Source: Cyanobacteriota bacterium | GTDB lineage: Bacteria > Cyanobacteriota > Cyanobacteriia > Cyanobacteriales > Nostocaceae | Direction: 5' to 3' | Length of the DNA stretch: 64,000 nucleotides | NCBI GenBank assembly: GCA_046045965.1 | Contig: JBJOKS010000002.1 | Span: forward strand, 64,001 to 128,000 | Shown: positions 3,509 through 19,193 of the stretch, piece by piece | Position numbering within the stretch: the first letter of the stretch is position 1 | How the letters are laid out: every line of letters begins with the position of its first letter | Program-made: the position numbers and the translations under genes | Notes under the pieces: generated by a model | What the model was told of the DNA's origin: nothing | Database searches by the model: none | The model's input: only the letters and a program-made list of their open reading frames with translations

Positions 3509-4630
3509 TCAACTATCTATCTTTGATATCTGTAATTTTCTACTGGTGGGATTAATAATAGAAACACCCAATTCTTGAGTAATTTTTAAAGCTTGTTCAT
3601 AACACTGAGAAGATAAATGAGCAAGATTCATTTTTTGATATAATTCTGATAATGCTTCCAGTACCTCAGATTCTGCTCGACGACATTCCATTTCTCTAAA
3701 AATACTTAAAGCTGATTGTAAATGATCTTCTGCTTCTTGATACCGATTCATCCGCATTAAAGTTTTACCAATATTACAAGTTCCCCACGCTTCTTGAGTT
3801 CTATAACCAATTTTTTGGGCAACTTCTAAACCTTGTTTATTGTAATCTAATGCTTTGACATAATCCTCCATACAAATATACACCAATCCTAAACTTGTTA
3901 ATACTATAGATTCTTGTTCAGGATCACCAATTTCTCTCACATTTATTAACTCATTCTGATAACATTCCAGAGCTTGAGGATATTGTCCTAAATATATATA
4001 AGCTAAACCTAATCTGGTATTTAAAATGTTTTGTAGATGACGATTTTTAAGTTGATATGCAATAGTTAAACCTTGTTCATAAAAATCAATGGCAGTATCA
4101 TAATTGCTCTGCATTAAATACACATTACCTAAATTATTTAAAAGTTGAGCTTGGTTAGGTTGATCATTGATTTCTTGAGCTATTTCTAATCCTTTTTCAT
4201 AACATTGAAAACACTCAGAATATTTACTAATACTATAATAAACATTGCCTAAACCACATAAATAGGCTAATTCAGTTACAGGATCTAAATTTCCCAGGAG
4301 ATTTTTATATACTTGAATAAGTTCAGAATAATATCCCCAAATACCCAATTGTTGATGAAATTGTTGTTGAATTGGTGGAGTTAAAGACATAGATAAAATA
4401 TCACTAGCTGGTTTCCAAGCGTGAGCATCACAAAGATGATAAAGTGCTTGTAAATAGCCTTCTAATTTTTGCCGATGACTAGCATTAATATTAGTTTGGT
4501 AATCTGTTAACCAGTTAATTACAGCTATATAATGATCTAATTGTTCTGGGGGAACTTGTTGTACAAGATTAGATGGTTGAATGCCTATATTTTCTAGGAT
4601 GATCGATCCTGGTAATAAAGAAATTTCCAT
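3509..4630 (-). CDS. Tetratricopeptide-repeat protein
   Basis: Tandem ~40-aa TPR units (LNNLGNVY..Y..AI.FYEQGL.IA). Confidence 0.88.
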   Translation of the reverse strand: MEISLLPGSIILENIGIQPSNLVQQVPPEQLDHYIAVINWLTDYQTNINASHRQKLEGYLQALYHLCDAHAWKPASDILSMSLTPPIQQQFHQQLGIWGYYSELIQVYKNLLGNLDPVTELAYLCGLGNVYYSISKYSECFQCYEKGLEIAQEINDQPNQAQLLNNLGNVYLMQSNYDTAIDFYEQGLTIAYQLKNRHLQNILNTRLGLAYIYLGQYPQALECYQNELINVREIGDPEQESIVLTSLGLVYICMEDYVKALDYNKQGLEVAQKIGYRTQEAWGTCNIGKTLMRMNRYQEAEDHLQSALSIFREMECRRAESEVLEALSELYQKMNLAHLSSQCYEQALKITQELGVSIINPTSRKLQISKIDS

Positions 4631-4657
4631 ATTATGCCTTTTTTTATTCCTTTGGTG

Positions 4658-6139
4658 TTAAGATTTTTGTAATAACTTTTCATGATGAGCTATAGCAACA
4701 CTTCTAACTAAATTGTGCATTCCTATCAGTTTCCAGCCATTATTTTGATCAAAGGTGACTTCAACTAAATAACGATCTTCTAAAGTTTGTAGTGCGATTT
4801 TTTGCTGTTCTTCAGTACATTGCCTATACTGTAAATGTCTCAACCACCAACTTTGTTGCACTGGAACACGATATACTGAACCTGTGCAAAGCAAAATATA
4901 GGCATGATGGGCATGATCTGATAATCTTTTGAAAGTTTGCTCTAGTCTACTTTGGACTTTTATGCGTAGCTCGATAGAATACCGATCTAATTTCCATTGA
5001 TCATTTGTTGATTTTATCATACCTTGACTAGCTTCTGCTAAAGCTTTTTCTACTTCTTCAATTTCCTGACTATACTGTTGCCAATAAGCGGAAACTTGGG
5101 ATGAAAAATCATTGATAATTTCTCCTGAAATGGTTCTTAATGCTAAAGGATGTCCTTTATATGCTTTACCTATTCTTAACAGCAATTTCATTTCCACAGA
5201 TGGCAAATTAGCACCTAAACCAACTTTATTAAATAAAGTCAATTGTTCCGTTTCTGTGAGTCCATCAACTCTCTGACAGTGCCAGAAATTGGGATAGCGC
5301 GATGCTGCTTCTAGCAGTTGACGTGGTAACTCTTGAGAGGTAATAATAAAACGACTTTTACAGGTTTCTGTTGATAGCAAACTTGCGAAAAATTGACACC
5401 ACCATTCATCAATAAAATCACTCCATCCAGTATTTTCATCTCCCATCAGTGCCAATTCCAAAGAGTCAATTAAGATTAACTGTGGATGATGACAAAAATA
5501 TGTAACTAAATGCTGGAGTAAAGACTGTGGTTGTTTTCGTTCTTCTGGTGAAACCTGTTCTCCTGCATTTTCTAACCACTTTACCGCGACACTTACGAAG
5601 TCTGAAGACGTGTTTTTGTCATCAAAGTTTTTTCGACACAATTTTTCTGGATTATGATCAAACTTGCTACTTAATTCCAGACTTAACCTTTCTGCTAATG
5701 CTGTTTTACCAATTCCTGTTAGTCCAACTAAGAGCAGTAAACGACAACAACCTTGTAAACTTTGAGTGAGATTGGTAATTAAATCATCTCTTCCTGTCCA
5801 CCCACTATCATAAACAAAAAATTCAGTTATTAAACTTGCTGGATTGGATTTTTCTGATTTTTCTGATGTATCTGTGGGTATATTTTGGGGAATTAATTCT
5901 GGTTTGTATTGATAGAATAAAGTTATTAATTCCTGTCGTTTGGAAAGACGCTCTCCATCGAGGTTTTTTAATTCAAAAGCTTTACATATAGATTCAATAT
6001 GTTTTCTTACAGTGGTTCTACTTATGTAAAGAGATTCCGCAATTTGTTGGTCTTTTTCACCACATAAGAATTTATCTAATACTCGTCGCTGTTGACGGGT
6101 TAGTGCGTCAAGTGCTGTCTGGAACTTATCAATATCCAC
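4658..6139 (-). CDS. LuxR-type HTH + NB-ARC (STAND) NTPase, no C-terminal sensor repeats
   Basis: N-terminal LTRQQRRVL..GEKDQQIAESLYIS.TTVRKH; Walker A GLTGIGKT; Walker B LILIDSLE; IITSQE; GHPLAL; MHNLVR winged-helix motif. Confidence 0.85.
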   Translation of the reverse strand: MDIDKFQTALDALTRQQRRVLDKFLCGEKDQQIAESLYISRTTVRKHIESICKAFELKNLDGERLSKRQELITLFYQYKPELIPQNIPTDTSEKSEKSNPASLITEFFVYDSGWTGRDDLITNLTQSLQGCCRLLLLVGLTGIGKTALAERLSLELSSKFDHNPEKLCRKNFDDKNTSSDFVSVAVKWLENAGEQVSPEERKQPQSLLQHLVTYFCHHPQLILIDSLELALMGDENTGWSDFIDEWWCQFFASLLSTETCKSRFIITSQELPRQLLEAASRYPNFWHCQRVDGLTETEQLTLFNKVGLGANLPSVEMKLLLRIGKAYKGHPLALRTISGEIINDFSSQVSAYWQQYSQEIEEVEKALAEASQGMIKSTNDQWKLDRYSIELRIKVQSRLEQTFKRLSDHAHHAYILLCTGSVYRVPVQQSWWLRHLQYRQCTEEQQKIALQTLEDRYLVEVTFDQNNGWKLIGMHNLVRSVAIAHHEKLLQKS

Positions 6140-6355
6140 TGTGTCTCTTGGGTTGATGATTATATTGTGTATATTTTTAGGTTAATCAATATTATACACA
6201 GTTGTGAATTTTTCTACACAGTTACAAAAAATAATAAATTACTTAGTATGCTGTATATGTAGGTAATGCCTAATTAATGTCGTATTTGTTACGGTAATTA
6301 TTTGTATTATTATGTATGGCGATGTGTTATTGAATAGCGATCGCTCTGCTTAGAC

Positions 6356-6447
6356 ATCGCTATTCTCGTGGGTTTGGTATAGGTGTCAAAAAATTTTTTC
6401 CCTATTTGCAACACAGGATCAAGAAGGAGCGTATATAAAGTAAGCCT
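6356..6447 (+). repeat. Left copy of ~92 bp direct repeat (3' end of CPBP gene + promoter motif)
   Basis: First 26 nt identical to 18894-18919, roughly 90% identical overall by eye; encodes IAILVGLV-stop. Confidence 0.95.
6406..6435 (+). promoter_or_regulatory. Putative ECF-sigma promoter copy 1 (TTGCAAC-N17-CGTATA)
   Basis: -35-like TTGCAAC 6406-6412, -10-like CGTATA 6430-6435, upstream A/T tracts. Confidence 0.75.
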
Positions 6448-6499
6448 ATTCTGTCCTAGCTTGTCTGATACAGATGTCAAAAAAAATTTTTTGAGTTTT

Positions 6500-6529
6500 T
6501 TGCAACATGAGGTGAATCTAGTGCGTATA
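6500..6529 (+). promoter_or_regulatory. Putative ECF-sigma promoter copy 2
   Basis: TTGCAAC 6500-6506, 17-nt spacer, CGTATA 6524-6529; ~90 nt upstream of the first cargo gene. Confidence 0.78.
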
Positions 6530-6616
6530 TAGATTGTGGACGATATCAAACATCTGCATCCAGTTCAACAAGATACCTTGTTACTCCTAGAACATTCGTT
6601 TTAATTGCCTAACACT

Positions 6617-7348
6617 ATGTCAAATTCCATACCACCAGAAAATCAAACTTCTGATGAACTAACTAATAGAGATGATTTAGATTCTCCCTCAGCGGTTAAT
6701 TTTCCTACTTCCAATTCAAAACATCCACAGTTAGTAGTAGAAACTAGCAAAAACGCTGTTTTAGATGTCTGGAGTGCTTTAAAACTGATTTGGAATGATC
6801 CCAATAATGGACTACAAACGGCAATTAATAGTTTAGGAGATAGTCGAATTTTCTATGCGGGAATTGCCCTTTGTATTCTGTTTGTGTTATCTGTTTGGAT
6901 GGCAGCATTAAAAACTCTAGAATCTCTTGCACCGTTGTTTTCTTTCGGTGGTTTATTTGGTGCAAGTTATAGTACCCAGTTAAGTTTTTCAGAACAATTG
7001 CGAGTTATTTTAGCTGCGACAATTCCCGTATTAGGGATGATAGCAGTTTTGTGGATCACCCGCAAAATATTTAAAGGTTCTGGGAATTATCAACAATTCA
7101 CATTTGTTACAGGTTTTTGTTTTGCTCCTATTACCTTTTTGCTATTAATGCTGTGGTTATTAGGCAGTAATGCAGCAGAATTAATGGCGTTAATTTCTGT
7201 ATTTTGCTGGACTACATTTGTTTTATTTTTGAATACAGCACTAATAGGAGTGTTGGGTTTATCTTCTCGCAATGCACTATTACTTGTGCCGCTAGTTTTA
7301 GTGGCTGATTTTTTCATCACTAGAGTTGGTATTGATATTTTGTATTGA
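6617..7348 (+). CDS. Polytopic membrane protein, possibly Yip1-like
   Basis: Disordered N-terminus then ~5 hydrophobic segments; ATG 6617 preferred over TTG 6605. Confidence 0.7.
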   Translation: MSNSIPPENQTSDELTNRDDLDSPSAVNFPTSNSKHPQLVVETSKNAVLDVWSALKLIWNDPNNGLQTAINSLGDSRIFYAGIALCILFVLSVWMAALKTLESLAPLFSFGGLFGASYSTQLSFSEQLRVILAATIPVLGMIAVLWITRKIFKGSGNYQQFTFVTGFCFAPITFLLLMLWLLGSNAAELMALISVFCWTTFVLFLNTALIGVLGLSSRNALLLVPLVLVADFFITRVGIDILY

Positions 7349-7369
7349 AACCAATTTGGGAATAATTAG

Positions 7370-7415
7370 CAACCTGTTGTACTTCAACCTGTTGTACTTC
7401 AACCTGTTGTACTTC
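7370..7415 (+). repeat. 15-bp tandem repeat (CAACCTGTTGTACTT)x3
   Basis: Three perfect copies just upstream of the lemA RBS. Confidence 0.95.
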
Positions 7416-7447
7416 GTTATCATCAACGTTTTCATAAGGAGTCTATC

Positions 7448-8005
7448 ATGGGTCAAATATTTGTTTTTTTCCTGGCCATGCTGGGATTGTTAGGATATTT
7501 AGTATCGAAAATTTACAATGAAATGAATAGACTTAATTCCAGAGTGAACAGAAACTTTTCTGGAATAGATACACAATTATCCAGAAGACACGCTGTTATT
7601 AAAAAGTTGGTTAGTAGTGTTGGTGCAGAACAAAAAAACGTTATTAAACAGTTTGAAGAGTTGACTAATTTAGTGGAAAAAGCCAATTTACAACGGGGAA
7701 ATCAACAGGCTTTTCTTGATACAGAAAATCAGATATCAAGAATGTGGAATCAAATATTAAACTTACCACAACTCAAAAGTATACGCGGGTTTCAAGACCT
7801 CAATAAACAAATTGCTGAAATAGAAGAAGAAATTGCAGCAGCCAGAAGAACATATAACGATAGTGTTGAAAGATTTAACACTTATTTAGTGAGTTTTCCG
7901 GCTGGATTTATTGCACAACTTCTTTTCAAACAGTTTCAAGAAAAGGCTTATTTTCAAGCAACTGCTGAAGAAAGACAAGATTCTGATATAGATTTTAATT
8001 TTTAG
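7448..8005 (+). CDS. lemA: LemA family protein
   Basis: N-terminal TM anchor, IDTQLSRRH, IAAARRTYNDSVERFN..LVSFPAGFIA; AAGGAG RBS. Confidence 0.88.
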   Translation: MGQIFVFFLAMLGLLGYLVSKIYNEMNRLNSRVNRNFSGIDTQLSRRHAVIKKLVSSVGAEQKNVIKQFEELTNLVEKANLQRGNQQAFLDTENQISRMWNQILNLPQLKSIRGFQDLNKQIAEIEEEIAAARRTYNDSVERFNTYLVSFPAGFIAQLLFKQFQEKAYFQATAEERQDSDIDFNF

Positions 8006-8046
8006 GTTGCTGTTGTCATCAAAAATGAAATAGAGGTAGATAGAAC

Positions 8047-9282
8047 ATGGATGAAAAACATAGTTATGCAGTTGAGAGCTTCTTTACTGGTAATGCTTTC
8101 AATACTAGACTGATGGAAGTGGAAACTGCTAGACAGGAAAAAGTTAAAAATCAGTTAATTTTTGGGGGATTAATTTTAACTGCACGGATTGTAATTGGTA
8201 TTTTGGGTTGTAGTATTTTGACTTTCATAATCCTATTTTTTGTAGATTCAGGATTTTCTCATATTCTGGCTTCTCTAGTAGGTTCAGGTGTTATTTATGG
8301 GCTAATGCGTGGTATTGATTGGGCTAAAAGTCGTATTAATTTTTTTGTGAAAAAACATAACAATCTACTGTTTTATCTTCGTAAAGATGCAATTGAAGGC
8401 TTTGTAAAAATTATTTTTCCCAATGCAGAACAGATAATATTTGAACCACAGATTTCATCTAAGAATCAGATGCAACCGATATTAGCTAATTTGTTCTACA
8501 ACAAGCTTTATAAATATACAGAGAAAAACACGCTTTCATTTACAATTAATAAACGACCTTTTTACATAGCAGATGTAGAACCTGTATATATACTTAATTC
8601 CCAGAAAGAGTCTATTGAGATTGATAAATTTATGGATAGATATAATAGACAAACTGTGTGTTACTTTAAAGGCATTGCTTATCAAATGGAATATGAAAAA
8701 GAAAATCTCAATAGTAATTTTCTAACATTAATGATTCCTAAAAAAGCTGCACCTAGTCCCACAAAAAAAATCAGAGAAGACCGTAAAACAATTACAGTTA
8801 GTAAAGATTATCCTAGATTGGAACTTTTGAGTAGGGATAAACGCCGCCCAGAAAGATTTATCCAGCGTGGTTATGAGGAATATAGTGTAGAAAACATAGA
8901 AATGGAAGATAACTTCTATGTCTTTACAAACAATGAAAACGCTTCCAGAAAACTACTATCCTATCGGTTTATGGAGAAGATTGCAGAAATTACATCACCA
9001 AAAAAAGAAGAAATATCTCGACCAAAAGTAGTACAATTACTTTTAGGTAATCAGGAAAATACTCCTAATTTCTGGATGCAATTTATCAATATGACTCGCG
9101 GAAATAATAAACCATTACAGAAACTTACAGTTGTAACTACAAATAATAATTTGACTTTTTTTGAGCTAACAGGAGAAAAATCTTGTCAATTAGATAACTT
9201 TCTACACAACTTTCAAAAATTGGAGAACAGATTAAATTCAATAATTACTGCATTAAATGTAGTACCAACCACTGGAAATTGA
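8047..9282 (+). CDS. Two-TM membrane protein with large soluble domain, possibly DUF3137-like
   Basis: Two N-terminal TMs; ENIEMEDNFYVFTNNENASRKLLS..FMEKI resembles the DUF3137 motif; follows lemA. Confidence 0.6.
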   Translation: MDEKHSYAVESFFTGNAFNTRLMEVETARQEKVKNQLIFGGLILTARIVIGILGCSILTFIILFFVDSGFSHILASLVGSGVIYGLMRGIDWAKSRINFFVKKHNNLLFYLRKDAIEGFVKIIFPNAEQIIFEPQISSKNQMQPILANLFYNKLYKYTEKNTLSFTINKRPFYIADVEPVYILNSQKESIEIDKFMDRYNRQTVCYFKGIAYQMEYEKENLNSNFLTLMIPKKAAPSPTKKIREDRKTITVSKDYPRLELLSRDKRRPERFIQRGYEEYSVENIEMEDNFYVFTNNENASRKLLSYRFMEKIAEITSPKKEEISRPKVVQLLLGNQENTPNFWMQFINMTRGNNKPLQKLTVVTTNNNLTFFELTGEKSCQLDNFLHNFQKLENRLNSIITALNVVPTTGN

Positions 9283-9288
9283 TATGGA

Positions 9289-10035
9289 GTGATAACTATG
9301 GATTTGAATCTTCAAAATATTAATCTCTATATCTCAGAATCTGATGTGGTAAGAACTATCATTAATCAGCGTCTTCAGGAACTAAAATTGCAAGAACCCC
9401 GATTAAAATTAGTTTTTCCACGTGCAACACTCGCTTTTATTTGGTTATTTATGATCCTAGCATCTTCTGTTATGTTGGGAATTTCTGTAATTAGTTTTTC
9501 TCTCAATTTAATAGTGATATCCAAGGTATATTATGACTTTGGTATTTTTCTAGGATGTTTATTGTTAATACCTTTAATAGTTTCTTGGAGAAAATATTTA
9601 CAAACAACAAAAAACCACAAAAAGCAATTGCGTTTATCAAGAACAGAACCTATTAATATAATGGAGATAGAACACTATTTTTCTGAACAAAAAAGTAATT
9701 TTATCAGAACATATCAGGAATATGTAAAAAATGTGCATAAAAAGATAGAGAATATAGAAAAAAATCAGCATCTCAGTTCAACCACAGCAGATGAAGTGCA
9801 AAGTTTACAAAATAGAATTTCTCAAGCTATTGATAGACTAGAAATACTGAAAAATGATTACTTTTCACGGTTAGATAATGTGGAATTGGAATTAAAAAAT
9901 AGGCTGATTGACCATAAAAGCGATCAGGAAATAGAAGTAGTTATAGAGTCTCAAATTTTAGTAGAAAGATTAGAAGAAGAGGTAGAAGCTATTAATTATT
10001 ATTTACAAGCTGTGGATGAAATTGGTTGGAGATAA
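9289..10035 (+). CDS. Hypothetical two-TM protein with C-terminal coiled coil
   Basis: 248-aa ORF, RBS GGAG, two hydrophobic segments then a charged helical region; start could be ATG 9298. Confidence 0.7.
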   Translation: MITMDLNLQNINLYISESDVVRTIINQRLQELKLQEPRLKLVFPRATLAFIWLFMILASSVMLGISVISFSLNLIVISKVYYDFGIFLGCLLLIPLIVSWRKYLQTTKNHKKQLRLSRTEPINIMEIEHYFSEQKSNFIRTYQEYVKNVHKKIENIEKNQHLSSTTADEVQSLQNRISQAIDRLEILKNDYFSRLDNVELELKNRLIDHKSDQEIEVVIESQILVERLEEEVEAINYYLQAVDEIGWR

Positions 10036-10096
10036 TTTGCTGTTAGATTTTATCTAAAATTCAAATTTTGTCAACAAAAAATGAGGTAAAAATTTT

Positions 10097-10363
10097 ATGG
10101 GTTGTCTTGCTATTTTCCTAAATTTATTGTTTCCTGGGTTGGGAACTCTGTTATTTACCAATAAAAAAGTTGCAGGATTTATTCAGTTGTTGTTATGTAT
10201 TATTAACGATATCCTGATTTTAGGAACTCTAGGAATTTGGCTTTTCTTTGGTCTGTTCATTCATATAGGATTTTTTGCCTGGGCGTTAGCATCTACCATT
10301 GGTTTTATGAGTGAACGAGCAGCGAAAAAAGCAATTCAAGAAGAGAGGGAACGTCAAGGTTAA
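10097..10363 (+). CDS. Small membrane protein (TM2-like PGLG motif)
   Basis: LNLLFPGLG motif, ~3 hydrophobic segments, GAGGT RBS. Confidence 0.7.
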   Translation: MGCLAIFLNLLFPGLGTLLFTNKKVAGFIQLLLCIINDILILGTLGIWLFFGLFIHIGFFAWALASTIGFMSERAAKKAIQEERERQG

Positions 10364-10484
10364 TTTATGGCAAATTTACCCCATCGCATTCTAATCTAGC
10401 AATAATTTAATATCACGTTTGGTATTTACAAACAACAAAAGGCAGATTTGCCTGTCGTGATGAGATTATAAAAAGGAGAAAATA

Positions 10485-11585
10485 ATGAAGAGATTGACTG
10501 GATACCTCCTGATACTATCATTGTTAGCTAGTTGTGGAAAAAGCCCAGAACAAGCAAGAAAAGACCTGTTTGCAATGGGTTTACAATTTGATAAAAATAC
10601 TTTTTACCAAGTTACATATAAATGCGATCTCCTACCGATTGATGACTTTTTGATAGGAGGAATGGAACCAGGATATGGTTTACTAGGGGCATCTGAAGGT
10701 GGCTGTGTTCAAATTGTCAAGAAGTTAGTTAGTAAAACTAAAGATAAATCCTACTTAGCTAATGCTCTTTATGCTGCTGTAGATCAAGAGCCTCAACCTC
10801 AATACACAGAAATTATTAAGATTTTACTTAATGCAGGAGTAGACCCTAACATTAGTATTGAAAATAAACAATCTTATCTTACTGTTGCAGCAGAGCGAAA
10901 TAATCTGGAAGTAGTGGAATTATTAATTAATAAAGGAGCTAATCCTCAAGATATTGATGGTGTAAACTCCTCAGCTTTAGTTGCTGCTGCTGCTAAGAGC
11001 GAAGAAATCACAAAAATTTTACTTGATAAAGGGGCAAACCCTAGTTCTGTAGGATGTGGTGACAACCATTGCACAGCTTTATCGCAAGCTGTTTTATCAG
11101 GAAATCAAGCGACTGTGAAGTTGTTATTAGATAAGGGAGCAGTGGTTAAAGATGGTAAAGATGGTAACTCTCTGTCATTAGAACAAGCAGTATATATATC
11201 TAATCCAGACCTGATCAAATTATTAGTCAATGCAGGGGCTGATCCCAATCAAAAAGGTTCTTGGAATCATTCTTTACTTGTCGGTGTGGTCAAAAGATAT
11301 GACGTGAATCTACCAATCCTCAAAGCTCTTTTGGAAGCAGGAGCAAAACCTAATGAGGAAGATGGCAACTCTTTGGCTTTGTCTGAAGTAGTACGATATA
11401 GGCAAAATGCTGAAGCAGTAGAACTTTTATTAAAACATGGTGCTAATCCAAATACAATTTCATCGGTTTTTATCAATACACCTAGAACTGTATTGGATGA
11501 GGCTTCAAGTGAAATCGCTGTAATTTTAAAGAAGTATGGAGCAGTTTCTGGTAATCAGCTTAATAAATCAAAACCACAAAGTTAG
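10485..11585 (+). CDS. Ankyrin-repeat lipoprotein
   Basis: Lipobox LLASC; repeated L..A......V.LLL..GA.PN units; AAGGAG RBS. Confidence 0.88.
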   Translation: MKRLTGYLLILSLLASCGKSPEQARKDLFAMGLQFDKNTFYQVTYKCDLLPIDDFLIGGMEPGYGLLGASEGGCVQIVKKLVSKTKDKSYLANALYAAVDQEPQPQYTEIIKILLNAGVDPNISIENKQSYLTVAAERNNLEVVELLINKGANPQDIDGVNSSALVAAAAKSEEITKILLDKGANPSSVGCGDNHCTALSQAVLSGNQATVKLLLDKGAVVKDGKDGNSLSLEQAVYISNPDLIKLLVNAGADPNQKGSWNHSLLVGVVKRYDVNLPILKALLEAGAKPNEEDGNSLALSEVVRYRQNAEAVELLLKHGANPNTISSVFINTPRTVLDEASSEIAVILKKYGAVSGNQLNKSKPQS

Positions 11586-11685
11586 TTTGGTAACAATTTT
11601 AGCAGAAGTGTAGAATGCTAAAAAAACTACCATAAAAATTGCCAAATATTCAAATTATCCAAATAGCCAACACAAGGATTAGTAT

Positions 11686-12165
11686 ATGCAGGTAAATCAA
11701 ATAATTGCTACTGGGTTAATTATCACCAATATTATTTTCTTGTTTTCATCAGTAGCAGAAGCACAAAACACAAAATTTACTGTTGAATGTAATGCAGCTT
11801 TACAAAGGGCAAAAAAACAAATTCAAAAAAATAGAAAAGTCAAAGTTGTTCATACAGATCAAGAAGATATTTCTCAACATTACAAACATGACAAAAGCTA
11901 TCCTCAAAATCGTCCATTTTCCTATGAGTTTGGTTTGAGAGGAGCAGCGACAGAATCTATCTTAAATTCTGATAAGTTATTAACTATAATTGCCAAAGAC
12001 ATTATAGATAATTGTCCATCAATTAGCATGATTAAATTTGGAGAATATGCAACTGATCATGGTGGGGCTATCGGTTTATTGAGAAATAACAAAGTTGAAC
12101 CTTTTGAATGTGTCGATCCAGGAGAAAACATCAAATTAAGTTGGGGACAAATCGTTTGCATTTAG
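11686..12165 (+). CDS. Hypothetical secreted protein (4 Cys)
   Basis: Signal peptide ending AEA-Q; AAGGA RBS. Confidence 0.75.
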   Translation: MQVNQIIATGLIITNIIFLFSSVAEAQNTKFTVECNAALQRAKKQIQKNRKVKVVHTDQEDISQHYKHDKSYPQNRPFSYEFGLRGAATESILNSDKLLTIIAKDIIDNCPSISMIKFGEYATDHGGAIGLLRNNKVEPFECVDPGENIKLSWGQIVCI

Positions 12166-12208
12166 ATAACAGATAATAGCTAACAAAACTTATTTATTTG
12201 GACAAAAA

Positions 12209-12742
12209 ATGAAAACCTTGTTTATCAACTTCACAATAACAACTGCATTAATTACAGTTATGTCACCTTTAGCATTTGCAGCACCAAAATCAGGATCAAA
12301 ACTTCCTTCAGGTGCTTATTATACTCCAGGAAGTATGTTTAATAATTCTTGGAGAGAGATTTTAAATCGTAATGGAAAAATTTGCATCAAAATAATTGAT
12401 GGACCTCCTAGTAATACAAAAGGACTAGAAGAAATAATGATTAGTAGTGTATCAAATCGAGGAGGTAAACTTTATATTGATGGTAAAAATCAGGAAATTC
12501 AGATAGACAGAGTAAGTAGAAAAAATCCACAGTATGAATTTTTAAGTCCCAGTGACTTTAACAGTATTCTAGCTGCTTTTGGTGATAATACTGGTGGTGC
12601 TGCTGCTTGGGTATTGTTTACAGGAAATAATTCTGATTCTCGTACTACTCCAGAGCAAAATAAGAGAATGCAGGAATGTATAAATACTAAAGGTAAGTAT
12701 GTCCGCAAAATCAAAGGTAGAATGCTGCAAGGACAATTTTAG
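12209..12742 (+). CDS. Hypothetical secreted protein
   Basis: Signal peptide ending AFA-A; 177 aa, two Cys. Confidence 0.75.
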   Translation: MKTLFINFTITTALITVMSPLAFAAPKSGSKLPSGAYYTPGSMFNNSWREILNRNGKICIKIIDGPPSNTKGLEEIMISSVSNRGGKLYIDGKNQEIQIDRVSRKNPQYEFLSPSDFNSILAAFGDNTGGAAAWVLFTGNNSDSRTTPEQNKRMQECINTKGKYVRKIKGRMLQGQF

Positions 12743-12833
12743 ATAATAAAAGAATTGAACAAAATGCAAAGAAATTTTAGCCAGTTAACAAGATTTTTGA
12801 TAATGACTTTTGTTAAAATACAGGACTAAATTT

Positions 12834-13340
12834 ATGAAATTTTCCCAGCTTAAAAACATCATTCTATGCTTCATATCTTGGTTTGGCTGGTTAGCATATA
12901 TCATCTGGAGTTTGTGTTATCTGATCTTGATGATATCTGTAGGTGTAGTCATACTAATTATACCCATCATAGCTTATATATTTTTTGCCATTACTTCTGT
13001 TATGTCCAGACTGGTACTAGGAGCGATAGGAATTGGTGATAATTACACTAACTATAATAGCCAATTTGAACTTACTCCCAGCGATAGTATAGGCTATACT
13101 CTGACGAAAGCTATAACATCTATTGTTCGCTTTATCTTTAAGCTAATTTTTGTACTACCTCTTAAATTATTTATTGGTAGTTATACAGGTATGTCAATGG
13201 AAACCCCTATAGCTGAAATTCCGGGTTATATATTAGAAAGTATTAGCTATTTACGTCCTCCACATCGTTTCAGCTTTTACAGTGGTATTATCAGTTTTCC
13301 ATTGATAATTGCAGTCTATTTTTATTTTACTAAAACCTGA
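12834..13340 (+). CDS. Hypothetical membrane protein
   Basis: Highly hydrophobic; ATG 12834 with AGGA upstream preferred over TTG 12810. Confidence 0.65.
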   Translation: MKFSQLKNIILCFISWFGWLAYIIWSLCYLILMISVGVVILIIPIIAYIFFAITSVMSRLVLGAIGIGDNYTNYNSQFELTPSDSIGYTLTKAITSIVRFIFKLIFVLPLKLFIGSYTGMSMETPIAEIPGYILESISYLRPPHRFSFYSGIISFPLIIAVYFYFTKT

Positions 13341-13355
13341 AAATTTTTCCCCTTT

Positions 13356-13385
13356 TTGCAACACGGAATGAATCTGGTTCGTATA
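13356..13385 (+). promoter_or_regulatory. Putative ECF-sigma promoter copy 3
   Basis: TTGCAAC 13356-13362, 17-nt spacer, CGTATA 13380-13385; 28 nt from the -10 identical to copy 2. Confidence 0.78.
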
Positions 13386-13448
13386 TAGATTGTGGACGAT
13401 ATCAAACGTCAATCAATCTGTAAATACAATAATGGGAGGAATAATTAC

Positions 13449-13997
13449 ATGAAAACCAAAATACTATTCAACATGAGCGTGGTTTTAATACTAATTGGTG
13501 TTAATTTACTGCCAGTTTATGCTCAAAAAGACAATAATCGGAGTTATATTGGACTCCGCTACCTTGGTCCCCGTCTTCCTTACACCCTTCCAGTGTACCT
13601 TGACCACCCCAAGGGTATTCAATATTTTGGTAGCTGGACAGTTGACGATGCTGAATATCCAAAACTACCCATATATGGAATCAGTCGTGTTAAAAAGGGA
13701 AACCAGGAAATGTTATGGTTGGAAATGGTTGTAGATAGAGACAGAAAAGGAAATCCAAGTAAATGGTTAGTTCTAGATGTATTCAATGTTCCTAAAACGG
13801 ACAAATCCTCAACTTTTGCCTATTCTTGTCAACGTAATGGTGTTGGTGATCCGGGAATAATTGTGATCGCTAAACTTCAAAATTCCCAAGATTTAAGGCA
13901 AATTCAAAAAGCTTGGCGTGCTAATCAGAAAACAAGAAAGTTTGAACCAATTAGTACCAAAGGTATAGTTTGTCAAAACCTGGATCTTTATCCTTAA
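13449..13997 (+). CDS. Hypothetical secreted protein
   Basis: GGGAGGA RBS before ATG 13449; signal peptide ending VYA-Q. Confidence 0.78.
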   Translation: MKTKILFNMSVVLILIGVNLLPVYAQKDNNRSYIGLRYLGPRLPYTLPVYLDHPKGIQYFGSWTVDDAEYPKLPIYGISRVKKGNQEMLWLEMVVDRDRKGNPSKWLVLDVFNVPKTDKSSTFAYSCQRNGVGDPGIIVIAKLQNSQDLRQIQKAWRANQKTRKFEPISTKGIVCQNLDLYP

Positions 13998-14061
13998 TAC
14001 AGCAATAATAATTCAATTTTTATTAATAGGGATGGTGTAGATTAAATACTAACTCTATAAG

Positions 14062-14256
14062 TCAGCCTCTGGAAACTGCTCTATCGCTAATTTCATCCAT
14101 CAATTTACCAAGAAAATCAACTTCCTCATTCAGATCCTCTCGTAAAAATAAACTAACCAGCGTTACCAAAGATTGCTTTTTCCGTTCTGTTGCTTTTTGA
14201 TAGGCTTGAGCAACTTTAGGACTCACTTTGATTGTAATTTCTTCACTAATCTGCAT
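14062..14256 (-). pseudogene. Small antitoxin-like gene, probably 3'-truncated
   Basis: ITIKVSPKVAQAYQKA...LMDEISDRAVSRG resembles small cyanobacterial antitoxin-like proteins; frame slips at AGAGGCTGACT; no partner toxin downstream. Confidence 0.45.
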
Positions 14257-14323
14257 AGTCAAGACTTGTTGATAGTATTGGTATTATTATATCGGATCAG
14301 GGCGATTGCAGCGATCGCTCTCC

Positions 14324-14363
14324 AAAAAATTATCAACAAATATAAAAAACTATCAACAAATAT
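14324..14363 (+). repeat. 20-bp tandem direct repeat AAAAAA(T/C)TATCAACAAATAT
   Basis: Two copies, one mismatch, abutting the -35 of promoter copy 4. Confidence 0.9.
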
Positions 14364-14393
14364 TTGCAACACGAGTTAATTATTTTTCGTATA
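14364..14393 (+). promoter_or_regulatory. Putative ECF-sigma promoter copy 4 (autoregulatory position)
   Basis: TTGCAAC 14364-14370, 17-nt spacer, CGTATA 14388-14393; 54 nt upstream of sigma ATG 14448. Confidence 0.78.
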
Positions 14394-14447
14394 AATAGTA
14401 GAGATATTGTATACTTAATGATGTTATTACTACAATGTCATAAGTCT

Positions 14448-15110
14448 ATGGATGATTTCAACCTCCACCTGCAATCTCTCATTCAAGAAGCTTGCACGTA
14501 CCCCAAAAACACCCCCCAGCATCGTAAAGCAATTAACAATTTGCTCCGATCTCTCCTGAAATCAGGACGTATTTGGAGGCCACCAGCAGGGAATGATAAC
14601 AACAAGGATATTTATGAAGAAGCATTACAAAAAACTCTGATTGATTTAGACAATAAAACATTATTTGAGAAATACGATCCAAATCAAGGTTCATTCCTAC
14701 CTTGGTTTAACAGATGTTTAGAAAACAAGTACAAAGATGAAATAAGAAAAGTTAAGCGTTATCAAAAGCGGATACAGTCTGTCTTAGAAAATGATGAAAT
14801 TTATATTGATCCATCAGAGCAAATTGTTTCTACCATAGATGCAACCTTACTCACTCCAATTTGGGAATCATTTGTACAATGGATTAAAGAAGATCCTGAT
14901 AATATTCTGAAAGATTGTCACATCAGAAATAACCCAAAAGCTAACTGTCAATTATTTGCTGAATTGAACCGTATCCAAGGAAAAAAATGGAAAGAAATAG
15001 CTGATGAAGTTGGATCACCGCAGGGTTCGTTGAGATCCCATTGGAATAGAAAATGTGAACCATTGCTGCAAAAATGGTTAGAAGAAAATCAAAAATTATT
15101 GGGAGAATAA
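14448..15110 (+). CDS. Sigma-70 family ECF-like sigma factor
   Basis: Region-2-like DIYEEALQKT...YDPNQGSFLPWFN and region-4 HTH GKKWKEIADEVG; ATG 14448 chosen because TTG 14364 falls inside the promoter motif. Confidence 0.78.
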   Translation: MDDFNLHLQSLIQEACTYPKNTPQHRKAINNLLRSLLKSGRIWRPPAGNDNNKDIYEEALQKTLIDLDNKTLFEKYDPNQGSFLPWFNRCLENKYKDEIRKVKRYQKRIQSVLENDEIYIDPSEQIVSTIDATLLTPIWESFVQWIKEDPDNILKDCHIRNNPKANCQLFAELNRIQGKKWKEIADEVGSPQGSLRSHWNRKCEPLLQKWLEENQKLLGE

Positions 15111-15114
15111 AACT

Positions 15115-16047
15115 ATGAATAATAAACTAGATAAACTAAATGTATTACATGATCTAGCTATTCCCTTTCCCATTAGTGCATCATTTCGTCACCAAGCTAG
15201 AACATACTCAGCACAATATTTTACACCAAATCTTCAACAAAGAATTTATTTGAATACCTTAGCTGTATTTGTTGCTGATGCTTATTTGCGGATGCTCGGT
15301 TTTAAGACTAATCTCAATCAACCAGAAAGATGGAATCCCATCCTTCGTTTATGGAGTGAAGCTAACGAATTAGAATTATTAGGATTGGGTAATTTAGAAT
15401 GTTGTGTGATTGCAAAAGATCAGGAAACATTAATTTTACCATCTGATACTGTTAGTAATAACATCGGCTATTTATTTATAGAAATTGCTGATTCAGAAAA
15501 ACAAGCCGTCTTAATAGGTTTTTTACCTGATTTTGATACTGAAGCTGCTAATGAAGAAGTAAAAATCACCGATTTACAATCTATGGATGATTTAATTGAT
15601 TATTTATCTCAAAAAGAAACATCTTCCCTAGCAGCAACAGCAGCAATTGATGAGCTATCCCTAGAATTTGCTGAAAAAAAAATTACTTATTTAAGAAATT
15701 GGTTGAATAATATTTATGAGGGAGATTGGCAACCCTCAATGCGCGATCTGAAAAATGCTACCTGCAACAAAAATATCTCCCTAGCAGGACAAATATTTAA
15801 AATGCAGCTTTCCGTTTCTCAAAACAGTGAGGAATTAGTTACTGTTAGAGTCATTGTCCAGAGTGAAAATACTCTTTTACCTATGGGTATGCAGGTGAGT
15901 GTACCAGACGAATCTGATATTTATACAGAAACAGTTGATCAACCTGCGGATTTGATATCTATACCCCTAGAATTATCTCCAGGTGATGAATTTTGGGTAG
16001 AATTGCGGTTAGGAGAAACCTTTGTTAGAGAATATTTCATTGCTTAA
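15115..16047 (+). CDS. DUF1822-like protein (candidate anti-sigma factor)
   Basis: IYLNTLAV.VADAYL..LG, LGLGNLEC, IGYLFIEI, LIGFL, LRNWL...EGDWQ and terminal PGDEFWVELRLG motifs typical of DUF1822 proteins. Confidence 0.8.
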   Translation: MNNKLDKLNVLHDLAIPFPISASFRHQARTYSAQYFTPNLQQRIYLNTLAVFVADAYLRMLGFKTNLNQPERWNPILRLWSEANELELLGLGNLECCVIAKDQETLILPSDTVSNNIGYLFIEIADSEKQAVLIGFLPDFDTEAANEEVKITDLQSMDDLIDYLSQKETSSLAATAAIDELSLEFAEKKITYLRNWLNNIYEGDWQPSMRDLKNATCNKNISLAGQIFKMQLSVSQNSEELVTVRVIVQSENTLLPMGMQVSVPDESDIYTETVDQPADLISIPLELSPGDEFWVELRLGETFVREYFIA

Positions 16048-16059
16048 ACAGGAGTTTCT

Positions 16060-18306
16060 ATGACTTGGAAAATCTCCTTTAAAATTGGTGGTAGAGTACA
16101 ACTGAATAATTCTGAACTTTTACCAGTCACCCTTGCTATTTATGATCAAGATGGACAAATAGAAGAACTGGTTTCTTTTCTTTCTCCTCTCCCACAATCT
16201 TTATCAAATAAGTTTAAAGATTGGCAAGATTATATTGGTTTACAAGGAGATAGAAAAGTTCCAAAAAATCGGGAAAATCGGACTTCTGGAGTAATTAATC
16301 TCACAGAATTAGCCAATTCTTTGAAAGCAGAATTAAACAAATGGTTAGGTAGAGATGGTTGGGTTGATGAAAATGGAAAACCAGATCCCCGTGTGAGTTT
16401 AGTTTTAGAAAAATTCCGGGAGAAAATAACTCAAAAAGATGAAGTTCAGATTATTGTCCAAACAGAAGATCGACAATTGCGGGGTCTTCCTTGGCAAGAA
16501 TGGGATACTTTGGCAGGGTATACTAGCAGTGGTGTAGAAGTTGCTATTAGTGCGACTAATTTTAAACGGTTGACGCAAAAGCAAACCCCACAATTAAAAG
16601 CAACTGCTCGGATATTGGTGGTATTTGGTGATGAAAAACTTGATTTTGCAGAAGAAATCAGTTTTATTAAAAGTTTGGAACAACATGGTGGTGATCCCCA
16701 TATCCTTAGACAACCTACACGCAAACAGTTAGAAGAGAAATTACAAGATAGTCAAGGTTGGCACATTTTCTTTTTTGCTGGCCATAGTGAAAGCGATCGC
16801 AATGGACGTATTGGACGGATTCAAATTAATCCCGCCGATGGGGAAGAAGGAATTATTGAAATTGCTGAATTGAAAGATTTATTAGCAGGTACAATTCAGA
16901 AAAAGTTACAAATAGCTATCTTTAATTCTTGTGATGGTTTGGGATTAGCAAATCAATTAACTGAGCTATCTTTGCCTTATTGTATTGTTATGCGCGAAAG
17001 GGTTGAATCTACCGTAGCTAGAGAATTATTAAGGCATTTTTTGGAGGCATTTGTACAAGATCGCTCTTTATTTGCATCTATGAATTATGCCAGACAACAG
17101 TTACAAAAGAAATTTGAACCCGGTAAAAGTTGGCTTCCTGTAATTGTTGCTAACCCCTTAGCGAAAGAAGTAACTTGGAATCGTTTATTTTCTGAAAGAA
17201 GGTTATCTTGGCAATGGGAAATATTTTTAGGAATGATAGCGATCGCCATGCTTATTTGCCTACCTCTTGGTATATTCACTGAATTTAATGGACGGGAAAC
17301 TTTAACACTTTACGCTCAACTTTATCCGCACATTACAGTTTATCCTTCCCTGTTTCTTTGGATGTCTCTATTTGCAGCTTATAGAGCGCATTGTATGATT
17401 AGAGTGCAAACACGCTCTTTTTTAATTTTAACATTGGTGACAATTTTTATGACTTTCGCTGCATTATTTTTTGAGCTTAATGGCGATCGCATGATGTTAT
17501 TAGAATTTAATTACCAAGCGATGACAACAATTAAAGCTGAAAATCTTGAAAAACTCTATTCAGATTGGGGAACTTCACAAGCAGAGATTAAAAATATTCC
17601 CCAGGGAATTTTTAATATTCATCAATCTTTTGATAATCAAGGAAATTTAATCATTAAAAAATCAGAGTTAGAACCAGCTATAAAACGATTGCAAAAAAGC
17701 AATAATAAAACTGCATTTCAAGGACTTTTTAGAATTGCTACATCTTATCAAGTGTGGCAACAAAATTATCAAGCATTTTCTCTAAATAGATGGTTTTACG
17801 CTCTAAATTTTCTCAGTATTGTTGCTTGTGGTATGCAGATTTTAGCACTGGTTTCCAATATTCTGTTTGTTCCAGATTCTATTTTTAATAAAAATAAATA
17901 CTTGACATATTTGATTATCTGTGAGTTGGGTATTCTCCTATGGTTGCCTTTTCAAAGTTACACCATAGAACATACCAAAAGTCTCTTATTCTCATATAAT
18001 TTTCGAGGTTCTCTAGCTGGAATGAATGTGATTATTTATGCGATTATTACTATACTGTTTTTTACCACTATTAGCAGTATCTATAAAAGTGCTACCAAAA
18101 AATATCAACCTATTTTGTTGTCATTTTTATTAGGTAGTTTAGGTTTGACTTTACTGAGTAGTATTTTTGGTGTTTCTTTGATTGATCATCTATTTGGGAT
18201 CAGCAGTACCGATCCTTTGACTCCTTGGTTTGCAAGTATCGTTTTTTCTGCTCCTTTATTTTTCTTACTTGTGCGTTGGATTGATTTACGAGTAGGTGAT
18301 GATTAA
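16060..18306 (+). CDS. CHAT (caspase-like) protease with ~8 C-terminal TM helices
   Basis: LPWQEWD, HIFFFAGHS (His) and IAIFNSCDG (Cys) dyad motifs, SWLPVI domain end; hydrophobic C-terminal half. Confidence 0.85.
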   Translation: MTWKISFKIGGRVQLNNSELLPVTLAIYDQDGQIEELVSFLSPLPQSLSNKFKDWQDYIGLQGDRKVPKNRENRTSGVINLTELANSLKAELNKWLGRDGWVDENGKPDPRVSLVLEKFREKITQKDEVQIIVQTEDRQLRGLPWQEWDTLAGYTSSGVEVAISATNFKRLTQKQTPQLKATARILVVFGDEKLDFAEEISFIKSLEQHGGDPHILRQPTRKQLEEKLQDSQGWHIFFFAGHSESDRNGRIGRIQINPADGEEGIIEIAELKDLLAGTIQKKLQIAIFNSCDGLGLANQLTELSLPYCIVMRERVESTVARELLRHFLEAFVQDRSLFASMNYARQQLQKKFEPGKSWLPVIVANPLAKEVTWNRLFSERRLSWQWEIFLGMIAIAMLICLPLGIFTEFNGRETLTLYAQLYPHITVYPSLFLWMSLFAAYRAHCMIRVQTRSFLILTLVTIFMTFAALFFELNGDRMMLLEFNYQAMTTIKAENLEKLYSDWGTSQAEIKNIPQGIFNIHQSFDNQGNLIIKKSELEPAIKRLQKSNNKTAFQGLFRIATSYQVWQQNYQAFSLNRWFYALNFLSIVACGMQILALVSNILFVPDSIFNKNKYLTYLIICELGILLWLPFQSYTIEHTKSLLFSYNFRGSLAGMNVIIYAIITILFFTTISSIYKSATKKYQPILLSFLLGSLGLTLLSSIFGVSLIDHLFGISSTDPLTPWFASIVFSAPLFFLLVRWIDLRVGDD

Positions 18307-18308
18307 AT

Positions 18309-18920
18309 ATGGAAAATCAGCAATTATATCAAGAACGAAAAAAAGTAATTCTGATTGTATTTTTTGCCTACATTCTGCCAGTTTTACTTGTGTTTTTAGA
18401 ATTAATTCCTTTTTCCTGGCGGTTTTATGTGCTAATTTTGGCGGCTATATTGGTAGTAGGAATCGCCTACCTATACCGATTTTCTCCTGTAGAATTGGGA
18501 TTTACAAACAATAACTTGGGAAAATCTTTGACAGCGATAGCCATACCAACATTAATTTTTGCTGGGTTGATGTTTGTTTATTATTTGACTCATGGATCGC
18601 GCATAGACAACTCAGCATATCAATGGATATTTTACCTTTTCTTTGTGGGTGTATCTTCTCCCATACAAGAATTTTTATATCGCGGGTTTTTATTTGCTAT
18701 TTTTAAGAGAGCAAAATTTGCCCCTTGGGTACAGATTATACTTTCTACCTTACTTTACAGTTTTGTGCATCTGATTTATAGAGATATACCCACGCTGGTA
18801 TTTACATTTATTATTGGTATATTTTGGGGCTGGAACTACGCCAAGTTTGGTAATTTATATAGTGTCATTATTAGTCATTCTTTATTAGGAGCGATCGCTA
18901 TTCTCGTGGGTTTGGTATAA
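18309..18920 (+). CDS. CPBP (CAAX/Abi) family intramembrane protease
   Basis: PIQEFLYRG, FVHL, IISHSLLG motifs in a polytopic membrane protein. Confidence 0.85.
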   Translation: MENQQLYQERKKVILIVFFAYILPVLLVFLELIPFSWRFYVLILAAILVVGIAYLYRFSPVELGFTNNNLGKSLTAIAIPTLIFAGLMFVYYLTHGSRIDNSAYQWIFYLFFVGVSSPIQEFLYRGFLFAIFKRAKFAPWVQIILSTLLYSFVHLIYRDIPTLVFTFIIGIFWGWNYAKFGNLYSVIISHSLLGAIAILVGLV

Positions 18921-18986
18921 GTGTCAAAAAAATTTTTTTACTATTTGCAACACAGGATAAACAGAGAGCGTATATAAAGTAAGCCT
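18894..18986 (+). repeat. Right copy of ~92 bp direct repeat
   Basis: Matches 6356-6447; begins inside HIP1 site 18891-18898. Confidence 0.95.
18945..18974 (+). promoter_or_regulatory. Putative ECF-sigma promoter copy 5 (no downstream gene)
   Basis: TTGCAAC 18945-18951, 17-nt spacer, CGTATA 18969-18974. Confidence 0.72.
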
Positions 18987-19146
18987 GTTTAAGAAATTAC
19001 ATCTCAAATAATTAGATGATTTCTTTAAGAGGTTATCTGCAAAGTTTTCGACGAATATAAAAAAGGTGACATCATGACTATTACTGGTGATTCTAAAAAT
19101 AACCTGACTTGCATCTCTGCTCCTCAAAAAACACAATAATAATTTT

Positions 19147-19177
19147 GTAGGGGTAAAGCACTTTGCTAAACCCTTAC
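19147..19177. terminator. GTAG-type imperfect hairpin downstream of cheA (REP-like or terminator)
   Basis: GTAGGGGTAAAGCA..TGCTAAACCCTTAC; similar element at 58198. Confidence 0.5.
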
Positions 19178-19193
19178 AATTACCAACCATAAA

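Follow-up and report, generated by a model that had tools for sequence, protein, structure and literature searches.

A window of 64,000 nucleotides (nt) from a member of the Nostocaceae, the whole stretch analysed here (positions 64,001 to 128,000 of contig JBJOKS010000002.1), carries a gene block in which a divergent extracytoplasmic function (ECF)-like sigma factor is encoded next to a DUF1822 protein, a caspase-fold CHAT protease, and a CPBP-family membrane protein. The block is a patchily distributed accessory island, and we call its host a heterocyst-forming cyanobacterium because HetZ is present in the genome. Five plus-strand copies of a bipartite motif, TTGCAAC-N17-CGTATA, lie in the island, and comparison with homologous loci indicates that they are very probably the cognate promoter and the whole regulon of this sigma factor. 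We read the locus as a protease-gated sigma factor with a private promoter and a local regulon, an explanation to which we assign a probability of roughly 70%.

A bipartite motif around the sigma gene

The preliminary description of this DNA had placed motif copies at 6406, 6500, 13356, 14364, and 18945, and all five are borne out as plus-strand intergenic sites; a gapped-word scan around the window ranked the motif first, and five copies were reached in 0 of 100 shuffles of the window (shuffle mean, 0.00). The genome-wide scan proposed there finds exact copies in the 5,292,358-base genome at the five window positions only, and when spacers of 10 to 25 are scanned genome-wide with exact boxes, spacer 17 alone yields matches. 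The copy at 14364 does end 54 nt 5' of the sigma ATG at 14448, a start that is common to the homologues. The two boxes had been described as fixed and the spacers as differing; the spacers are nevertheless related, since those at 6406 and 18945 share 13 of 17 letters and those at 6500 and 13356 share 11 of 17, together with some 25 nt downstream. A direct repeat (6356 to 6450 and 18894 to 18989, both plus strand; 87 of 96 columns identical) starts with the last CPBP codons. Its left arm, consisting of the CPBP 3' tail and a promoter, begins at the ATCGC half of the octamer GCGATCGC, which we take to be HIP1, and the full octamer is found at 18891 to 18898 in the A-I-A codons of CPBP by the right arm. 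The five copies represent two lineages, the self promoter and a post-CPBP unit from which the other four are derived, so that the shuffle statistic overstates the case.

The individual sites comprise P1 (6406 to 6435), the first of a tandem pair; P2 (6500 to 6529), before a run of Yip1-like and LemA cargo genes; P3 (13356 to 13385), a P2-type copy that precedes the gene at 13449; the putative self promoter of the sigma operon (14364 to 14393); and the post-CPBP site (18945 to 18974), which occupies the ancestral position and is followed by no same-strand gene but by a convergent CheA-like gene whose 3' end lies about 220 nt further on. Scans for sigma-70-type promoters and for terminators stayed at chance level. 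Alignment with homologues also reveals a conserved short inverted repeat (14419 to 14440, plus strand; consensus TGACA-N11-TGTCA) just 5' of the sigma start, which is weak as RNA (–0.2 kcal/mol) and could serve as operator or second promoter. The hexamer TATACT stands before it and is replaced by TCTGCT in most loci with a TGCAGA self site.

Thirty-five homologous sigma loci (50 to 83% identity) were collected in two scans. Six near-duplicates (L049 to L053 and L055) were dropped before motif counts, matrix, tree, and alignment, and L041 was left out of the sigma tree. The matrix, the alignment with its box counts, and the counts of CPBP-tail-like DNA given below exclude L044@1393 (AAC, lying 8.6 kb upstream), L041@2944 (inside a reading frame), L039@683, and TGCAAA sites. 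TGCA-nn-N17-CGTA is present within 600 nt upstream of sigma in 34 of the 35 loci, and the 35th has the one-letter variant TACAGC. On the sigma strand of 30 distinct loci (503,585 bp), spacer 17 gives 92 matches against 1 to 8 for spacers across the range 12 to 22, and the opposite strand gives 1 to 6. Across 30 upstream regions in a plain alignment, column identity is 0.89 in the –35 box and 0.95 in the –10 box, compared with 0.70 in the spacer and 0.45 in the upstream flank. The family consensus is TGCARCA-N16-CGTA, which replaces the motif as first described. A matrix built from 72 homologue sites, with the window excluded, recovers exactly the five window sites (32.8 to 49.1 bits; P1, 32.8; P2, 49.1; P3, 47.6), and no sixth site above 14 bits is found with it in the host genome.

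Of 15 sigma-bearing genomes, 9 have a cluster of at least two copies on one strand inside 20 kb, versus 1 of 135 others; 12 of the 15 also helped to define the motif pattern. In the held-out genomes the self site is present in 3 of 3 and post-CPBP copies in 2 of 3. Among ten isolated sites, chosen for spacer likeness or clustering, seven lie beside deleted core remnants or island cargo, and three have no module remnant or island cargo nearby. The proposal that the motif is the cognate promoter of the sigma factor encoded at 14448 is thus supported by its sigma-strand occurrence across cyanobacterial families, both upstream of sigma and before cargo, by its confinement to the island in the host genome, and by a –35 box that changes with the sigma clade.

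In the clade of the window's sigma factor (nine rows; support, 99/97), TGCAAC is found in 9 of 9 self sites and 16 of 16 target sites. The self sites of the other 21 loci have AGC (13) or AGA (7) at the same place, and their target sites have AGC (37), AGT (2), or AAC (1). Residue 192, just before the sigma4 recognition helix, is Gln or Ser in the AAC clade and Arg in all others. Seven loci combine a weaker-looking self site, TGCAGA..CGTAA/C, with targets that keep the consensus. Because the two promoter lineages, self and target, have changed alike, these sequences suggest a shared reader for both. The clade-linked box also bears on the idea that the motif is read not by the island sigma factor but by a factor of the host, which might be a core ECF (SigG, for example) or the LuxR-STAND protein encoded nearby. 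AAC and CGT boxes are typical of many ECF promoters, and isolated strict matches turn up repeatedly in small genomes of another class (L010 to L020, family f34), several with a shared spacer, where they are possibly the promoter of an unrelated ECF; both points would suit a host reader. Such a reader is very improbable, however, given that the genome has no sixth site and none upstream of what we take to be its SigG-like gene, that the LuxR-STAND gene has no homologue in 26 other loci, and that the box follows the clade of the island sigma factor.

The repeat structure raises a different doubt, namely, that local tandem duplication of a unit bounded by HIP1 left most copies behind as inert relics, with function confined at most to the self site. 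Target copies do come from the CPBP-tail unit: tail-like DNA is kept upstream of 14 of 45 non-adjacent target copies versus 1 of 23 self sites. In three related loci (L043, L033, and L056) the promoter unit is amplified as empty tandem copies with HIP1 at the joints, and all eight of the HIP1-like octamers found just downstream of target copies (8/58, versus 3.9% background) belong to these loci; the copy at 18945, as noted, has no target gene. On the other hand, the boxes have stayed fixed while the spacers have drifted to 6 to 9 of 17 identity between lineages (an invariance that among targets is partly circular, because the sites were picked by their boxes), the copies stand 60 to 210 nt before cargo starts, and the target boxes switch along with the self box. 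We therefore regard inert relics as quite improbable and retain the reading of the copies as promoters of the island sigma factor.

The sigma factor, its predicted inhibitor, and the CHAT protease

The labels given to the four core genes in the preliminary description hold by Pfam (Sigma70_r2, weakly; DUF1822; CHAT; and Rce1-like). The sigma factor (14448 to 15110, plus strand; 220 amino acids [aa]) matches Sigma70_r2 at an E value of 3e-4 (21 versus a cut-off of 24), and a PDB sequence search with its profile returned nothing under E 0.18. Its structure model (mean predicted local distance difference test score [pLDDT], 81.7) has sigma2 and sigma4 folds without sigma3, the composition of group 4 (ECF) factors, and Foldseek ranks 1 to 10 are all sigma factors, mostly ECF. 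The best structural match is SigW (Z, 8.5; root mean square deviation [RMSD], 2.9; 91 residues aligned), and there are separate matches to single ECF domains, the isolated sigma2 2o7g (Z, 8.1; RMSD, 2.3; 83 aligned) and the isolated sigma4 2h27 (Z, 7.2; RMSD, 2.7; 69 aligned). A conserved bipartite site upstream of the factor's own gene, also expected of an ECF factor, is the one described above for 34 of 35 loci. The sigma profile finds 838 clusters (50% identity) at E 0.001 or better.

The DUF1822 protein (15115 to 16047, plus strand; 310 aa) is predicted to be a soluble anti-sigma factor. The modelled sigma-DUF1822 complex scores 0.79 versus 0.33 for the best control, the runs share at least 66% of contacts, and the partner pLDDT is at least 77; among solved pairs 116 of 157 attain this score mark, and among mismatched pairs 2 of 215, a calibration that applies roughly here. 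In the model the N-terminal domain of DUF1822 (residues 14 to 168) contacts both sigma2 (20 to 68) and sigma4 (175 to 215, including residues 192 and 196), a pattern expected of an anti-sigma factor. Modelling thereby lends support to the role that had been proposed for this protein, and we consider it likely that DUF1822 acts as the anti-sigma factor. Arg210, in the linker between its two domains, is invariant in 23 of 23 sequences and is the candidate cut site.

The CHAT protease (16060 to 18306, plus strand; 748 aa) matches PF12770 (E, 1.5e-10) and carries the His/Cys dyad of CHAT and clan CD proteases (His242/Cys291), which is invariant in 23 of 23 full-length sequences. Ahead of the CHAT match, where the EACC2-caspase neighbourhoods discussed below carry an EACC2 domain, lies a conserved stretch of about 130 aa, and a multi-pass membrane region with a mean column identity of 77% forms the C terminus; the model of the latter (pLDDT, 57) resembles generic helical bundles at best (Z, 7.7), and the Atlas returned nothing for it. 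The CPBP/Abi (Rce1-like) membrane protein (18309 to 18920, plus strand; 203 aa) matches PF02517 above the cut-off. Intramembrane proteases of this type have EExxxR, FxxxH, and distal His motifs; His154 and His190 are kept here, and QEFLYRG replaces the usual EE motif in 24 of 24 sequences. Because the first Glu is absent in all of them, protease activity of CPBP itself is doubtful, and the protein may be a non-catalytic partner. Across 26 long loci plus the window, sigma is retained in 27, DUF1822 in 26, CPBP in 24, and full-length CHAT in 23 (broken in three, at a contig end in one), and the CHAT gene always follows directly after DUF1822.

Precedents and the proposed switch

The gene core is already in print, and its logic has three tested precedents. 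Kaur, Iyer, Burroughs, and Aravind (eLife 2021, PMC8195603) catalogued computationally EACC2-caspase neighbourhoods with an ECF sigma factor and DUF1822 (TRADD-N+TPRs), which have the same gene set as the island; the island follows their order of a sigma or HTH (helix-turn-helix) protein, DUF1822, and a caspase with a variable C terminus, and its four-gene order is one row of the source data of their Figure 3. Neither a promoter nor a regulon, an anti-sigma assignment, a cut site, or an experimental test appears in the passages and rows of that paper considered here, and a promoter or regulon for the sigma-DUF1822-CHAT core was not found in the literature searched, which included few subscription papers, so that a description may have been missed. 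Only two papers of this literature mention DUF1822, and the main text of PMC7826278 mentions neither CHAT, DUF1822, nor caspase.

The closest parallels lie in three systems. In Anabaena PCC 7120, the ECF-type sigma factor HetZ is inhibited by the soluble, co-encoded PatU3 (PMC13342950), which the membrane-anchored CHAT protease HetF cuts after Arg117 (PMC9457339). HetZ, like the island sigma factor, uses a bipartite promoter with a 16- to 17-nt spacer, but it is a protein of ~400 aa with insertions that reads TCCGGA/TGnA at 546 sites genome-wide (PMC13342950), whereas the island factor has 220 aa, five local sites, and the consensus TGCARCA/CGTA. Identity of the two systems was considered and rejected: hhalign probabilities are under 1% (with shallow templates, so that remote kinship is possible), and the HetF profile gives 23.8 bits versus 1200. 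The genome's own HetZ is encoded elsewhere, and no likeness of it or its neighbour to island proteins was detected; two weak HetZ-profile matches elsewhere turned out to be a coiled-coil protein and a TnpB.

Type III-E Csx29/Csx30/CASP-sigma likewise joins a CHAT protease, a soluble anti-sigma factor, and an ECF sigma factor with three sites in its own locus (PMC10028731). Its sensor is Cas7-11, whereas the presumed sensor of the island is a membrane region and the cargo is exported. A weak profile match to NF041236 (E, 1e-4; far below cut-off) is a further likeness, and no Cas gene, Cas7-11, Csx29, or Csx30 is found among those island proteins that were searched against Pfam, NCBIfam, and PADLOC. 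In the DdvS/DdvA island of Myxococcus xanthus, one ECF sigma factor drives four promoters within the island and a CHAT domain takes part in control; there, unlike here, the anti-sigma factor itself contains the CHAT domain, which is periplasmic, and the cargo is CBASS (cyclic-oligonucleotide-based antiphage signalling) plus CRISPR (PMC11506125). By analogy, the island module would work like HetF-PatU3-HetZ and Csx29-Csx30-CASP-sigma, and it belongs to neither.

Bacillus subtilis SigW is the best fold match of the island sigma factor and offers a further comparison: it is a protease-released ECF factor with an AAC/CGTA-type promoter and an antibiosis regulon that comprises membrane and immunity-like proteins. 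The promoter type is shared with the island. The SigW anti-sigma factor is a transmembrane protein cut by PrsW/RasP and its regulon is dispersed, whereas the island has soluble DUF1822 and local sites.

We propose that, at rest, the soluble DUF1822 protein would hold both sigma domains. A membrane signal sensed by the multi-pass C-terminal region of CHAT, perhaps with CPBP as a partner, would activate the caspase-fold protease, which would cut DUF1822, most likely after Arg210; degradation of the cut protein would free the sigma factor, which would amplify its own operon in a positive feedback and transcribe a small, strain-variable local regulon of exported proteins, lipoproteins, and membrane proteins. 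This chain from CHAT cleavage to release is put forward because of the modelled DUF1822 binding, the invariant dyad and Arg210, and the HetF precedent (PMC9457339), and cleavage of DUF1822 by this CHAT is, in our estimate, rather probable. The likely purpose would be cell-envelope protection or repair against biological attack. Envelope attack or antagonism is pointed to because the cargo is exported, the spread patchy, and deletion frequent, and we put the odds for this trigger and purpose at about even.

Promoter and anti-sigma factor could also be as proposed while CHAT serves as an effector arm, cutting itself or another protein and freeing a membrane-acting domain, with sigma released otherwise, for instance via CPBP. 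Arg210 lies outside the modelled interface, and the membrane region is conserved as an effector might be, which would both agree with such an arm. The fixed placement of the CHAT gene after DUF1822, however, speaks against it, as do the missing first Glu of CPBP and the invariant linker Arg, which parallels the HetF site (YR-S stands at a like place in a paralogous DUF1822 and in the genome's own PatU3-like open reading frame [ORF]). An effector role in place of the DUF1822 cleavage preferred here is accordingly unlikely.

Several further points weigh against the protease-gated reading as a whole. The RNA data examined consisted of contigs, which carry no information on starts, strand, or level, and the motif sites are therefore putative promoters, although transcription from them is highly likely. 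The 5' leader is also conserved (0.78 in the alignment of 30 upstream regions), and part of the box conservation therefore reflects shared descent. The switch from AGC to AAC lies on one branch (99/97), so that it is one event and proves no code, and duplication within the clade could have spread AAC among the target copies. With a relaxed pattern, 136 matches are obtained in 82 of 151 family genomes (22 in a reversed control), mostly single matches away from any such sigma factor, some of which read on inspection as a coding Leu-Gln-Gln stretch. The in-island share of matches in five whole genomes is 3/3, 2/7, 7/9, 3/3, and 3/7, so that two of the five have most matches outside the island. 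The sigma factor scores 35.8 bits on TIGR02937 versus a curated cut-off of 42.9, which makes it a divergent ECF member at best, and its model has no Foldseek match at E 0.001 or better. A cut at Arg210, because of its position outside residues 14 to 168, would need further degradation to free sigma. Finally, no cargo gene with a known protective function was found in the homologous loci or by the PADLOC scan.

Cargo, spread, and significance of the island

The island was inserted at a site that is empty or nearly so in congeners: in three of them the flanks match and the block from ~3510 to 19190 does not, and in two of the three the flanks are 135 bp and ~1.1 kb apart. The sigma factor is encoded in 15 of 150 family genomes and in none of the three congeners. 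Upstream of the core, ten genes for membrane or exported proteins run on the same (plus) strand. They encode a Yip1-like multi-pass membrane protein (6617 to 7348; Pfam below cut-off), a LemA family protein (7448 to 8005; Pfam), a DUF3137-like membrane protein (8047 to 9282; Pfam below cut-off), two membrane proteins of 245 and 88 aa without a named family (9298 to 10363), an ankyrin-repeat protein with a lipoprotein-like N terminus (10485 to 11585), two exported proteins (159 and 177 aa) and one membrane protein (168 aa) without a named family (11686 to 13340), and an exported protein of 182 aa whose unnamed family is also found in other phyla (13449 to 13997). A TPR gene and a LuxR-HTH/STAND gene (3509 to 6139, minus strand), divergent from the cargo and inside the insertion, are probably passengers, because the homologous loci lack them. 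Between the Yip1-like and LemA genes, a 15-nt sequence stands in three perfect tandem copies (7370 to 7415), and the remnant of a short ORF on the reverse strand lies together with a HIP1 site between cargo and self promoter (14020 to 14320), in DNA resembling that of L023, L025, and L027.

The usual arrangement in homologous loci is the CPBP gene, then one to seven promoter copies, then cargo; the window is an exception in which the cargo block and a CPBP-tail promoter unit stand upstream of the core, with terminal repeats left, and locus L024 has the same tandem promoter pair downstream of CPBP. Cargo varies across loci (COP23, CsgG, trypsin, PDZ, M48-TPR, DUF4833, LemA/DUF3137, and many unnamed), and by inspection and a hydropathy scan most of it has signal-peptide-like or membrane N termini. 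As to cargo function, the Atlas gave unnamed clusters only and PADLOC only repeat-domain or weak coiled-coil matches. Three cargo families, none of them in Pfam, have the widest spread outside the window's clade: an exported charged coiled-coil protein (12 loci), a lipoprotein with a coiled coil and a hydrophobic hairpin (6 loci), and a 96-aa two-helix membrane protein (6 loci); examples are L029:14917-15639, L045:15217-15918, and L056:15009-15296.

Internal deletions have often destroyed the core, fusing pieces of sigma, DUF1822, CHAT, or CPBP and leaving the promoters in place (L023, L025, L039, L070, L071, and L072). In loci L077 (genome G268), L075, and L076, promoter and island-type cargo occur either far from an intact core or with no such core; because promoter and cargo in G268 lie ~90 kb from sigma, the regulon can be split. 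The point after the CPBP stop looks like an insertion hotspot: a short element starting GGACTTAC(G) is inserted directly there in L024, L026, L027, and L047, and UPF0175/DUF3368 gene pairs in L031 and L044. The host genome also has a second sigma-DUF1822-CHAT module on contig C5 (L022:7902-15141), whose sigma factor is 28% identical and whose CHAT protein has 1859 aa with an NTPase-like and a repeat region; it precedes a peptidase-ABC (ATP-binding cassette) transporter gene and two short precursor-like ORFs. That module lacks the window motif, and the gapped-word scan gave no repeated motif of its own.

More tentatively, such islands might be self-building regulons, an integrase-free cassette system for inducible envelope defence, although we think this doubtful. 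A unit of ~95 to 150 bp, consisting of the CPBP tail and the promoter and bounded by HIP1, would be copied by local recombination, each new copy bringing captured exported-protein genes under the caspase-gated private sigma factor, and sigma and promoter would drift together (Arg192 with G, Gln/Ser192 with A). No integrase is found among the 24 of 35 ORFs of window positions 1 to 30000 scanned in Pfam, and the island does not qualify as an integron on this count. If the self-building view is true, the 838 sigma clusters may amount to a large number of switches insulated from one another, with a specificity code that can be read.

By the same cluster count, sigma-DUF1822-CHAT modules are numerous, and for them this locus supplies an exact promoter, a five-site regulon, a candidate anti-sigma factor whose interface has been modelled, and candidates for the cut site and the specificity residue. 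The switch could yield a compact, orthogonal, protease-gated tool for cyanobacterial engineering, and it would extend the logic of HetF-PatU3-HetZ from heterocyst development to mobile accessory islands of the Nostocales, bloom-forming genera included.

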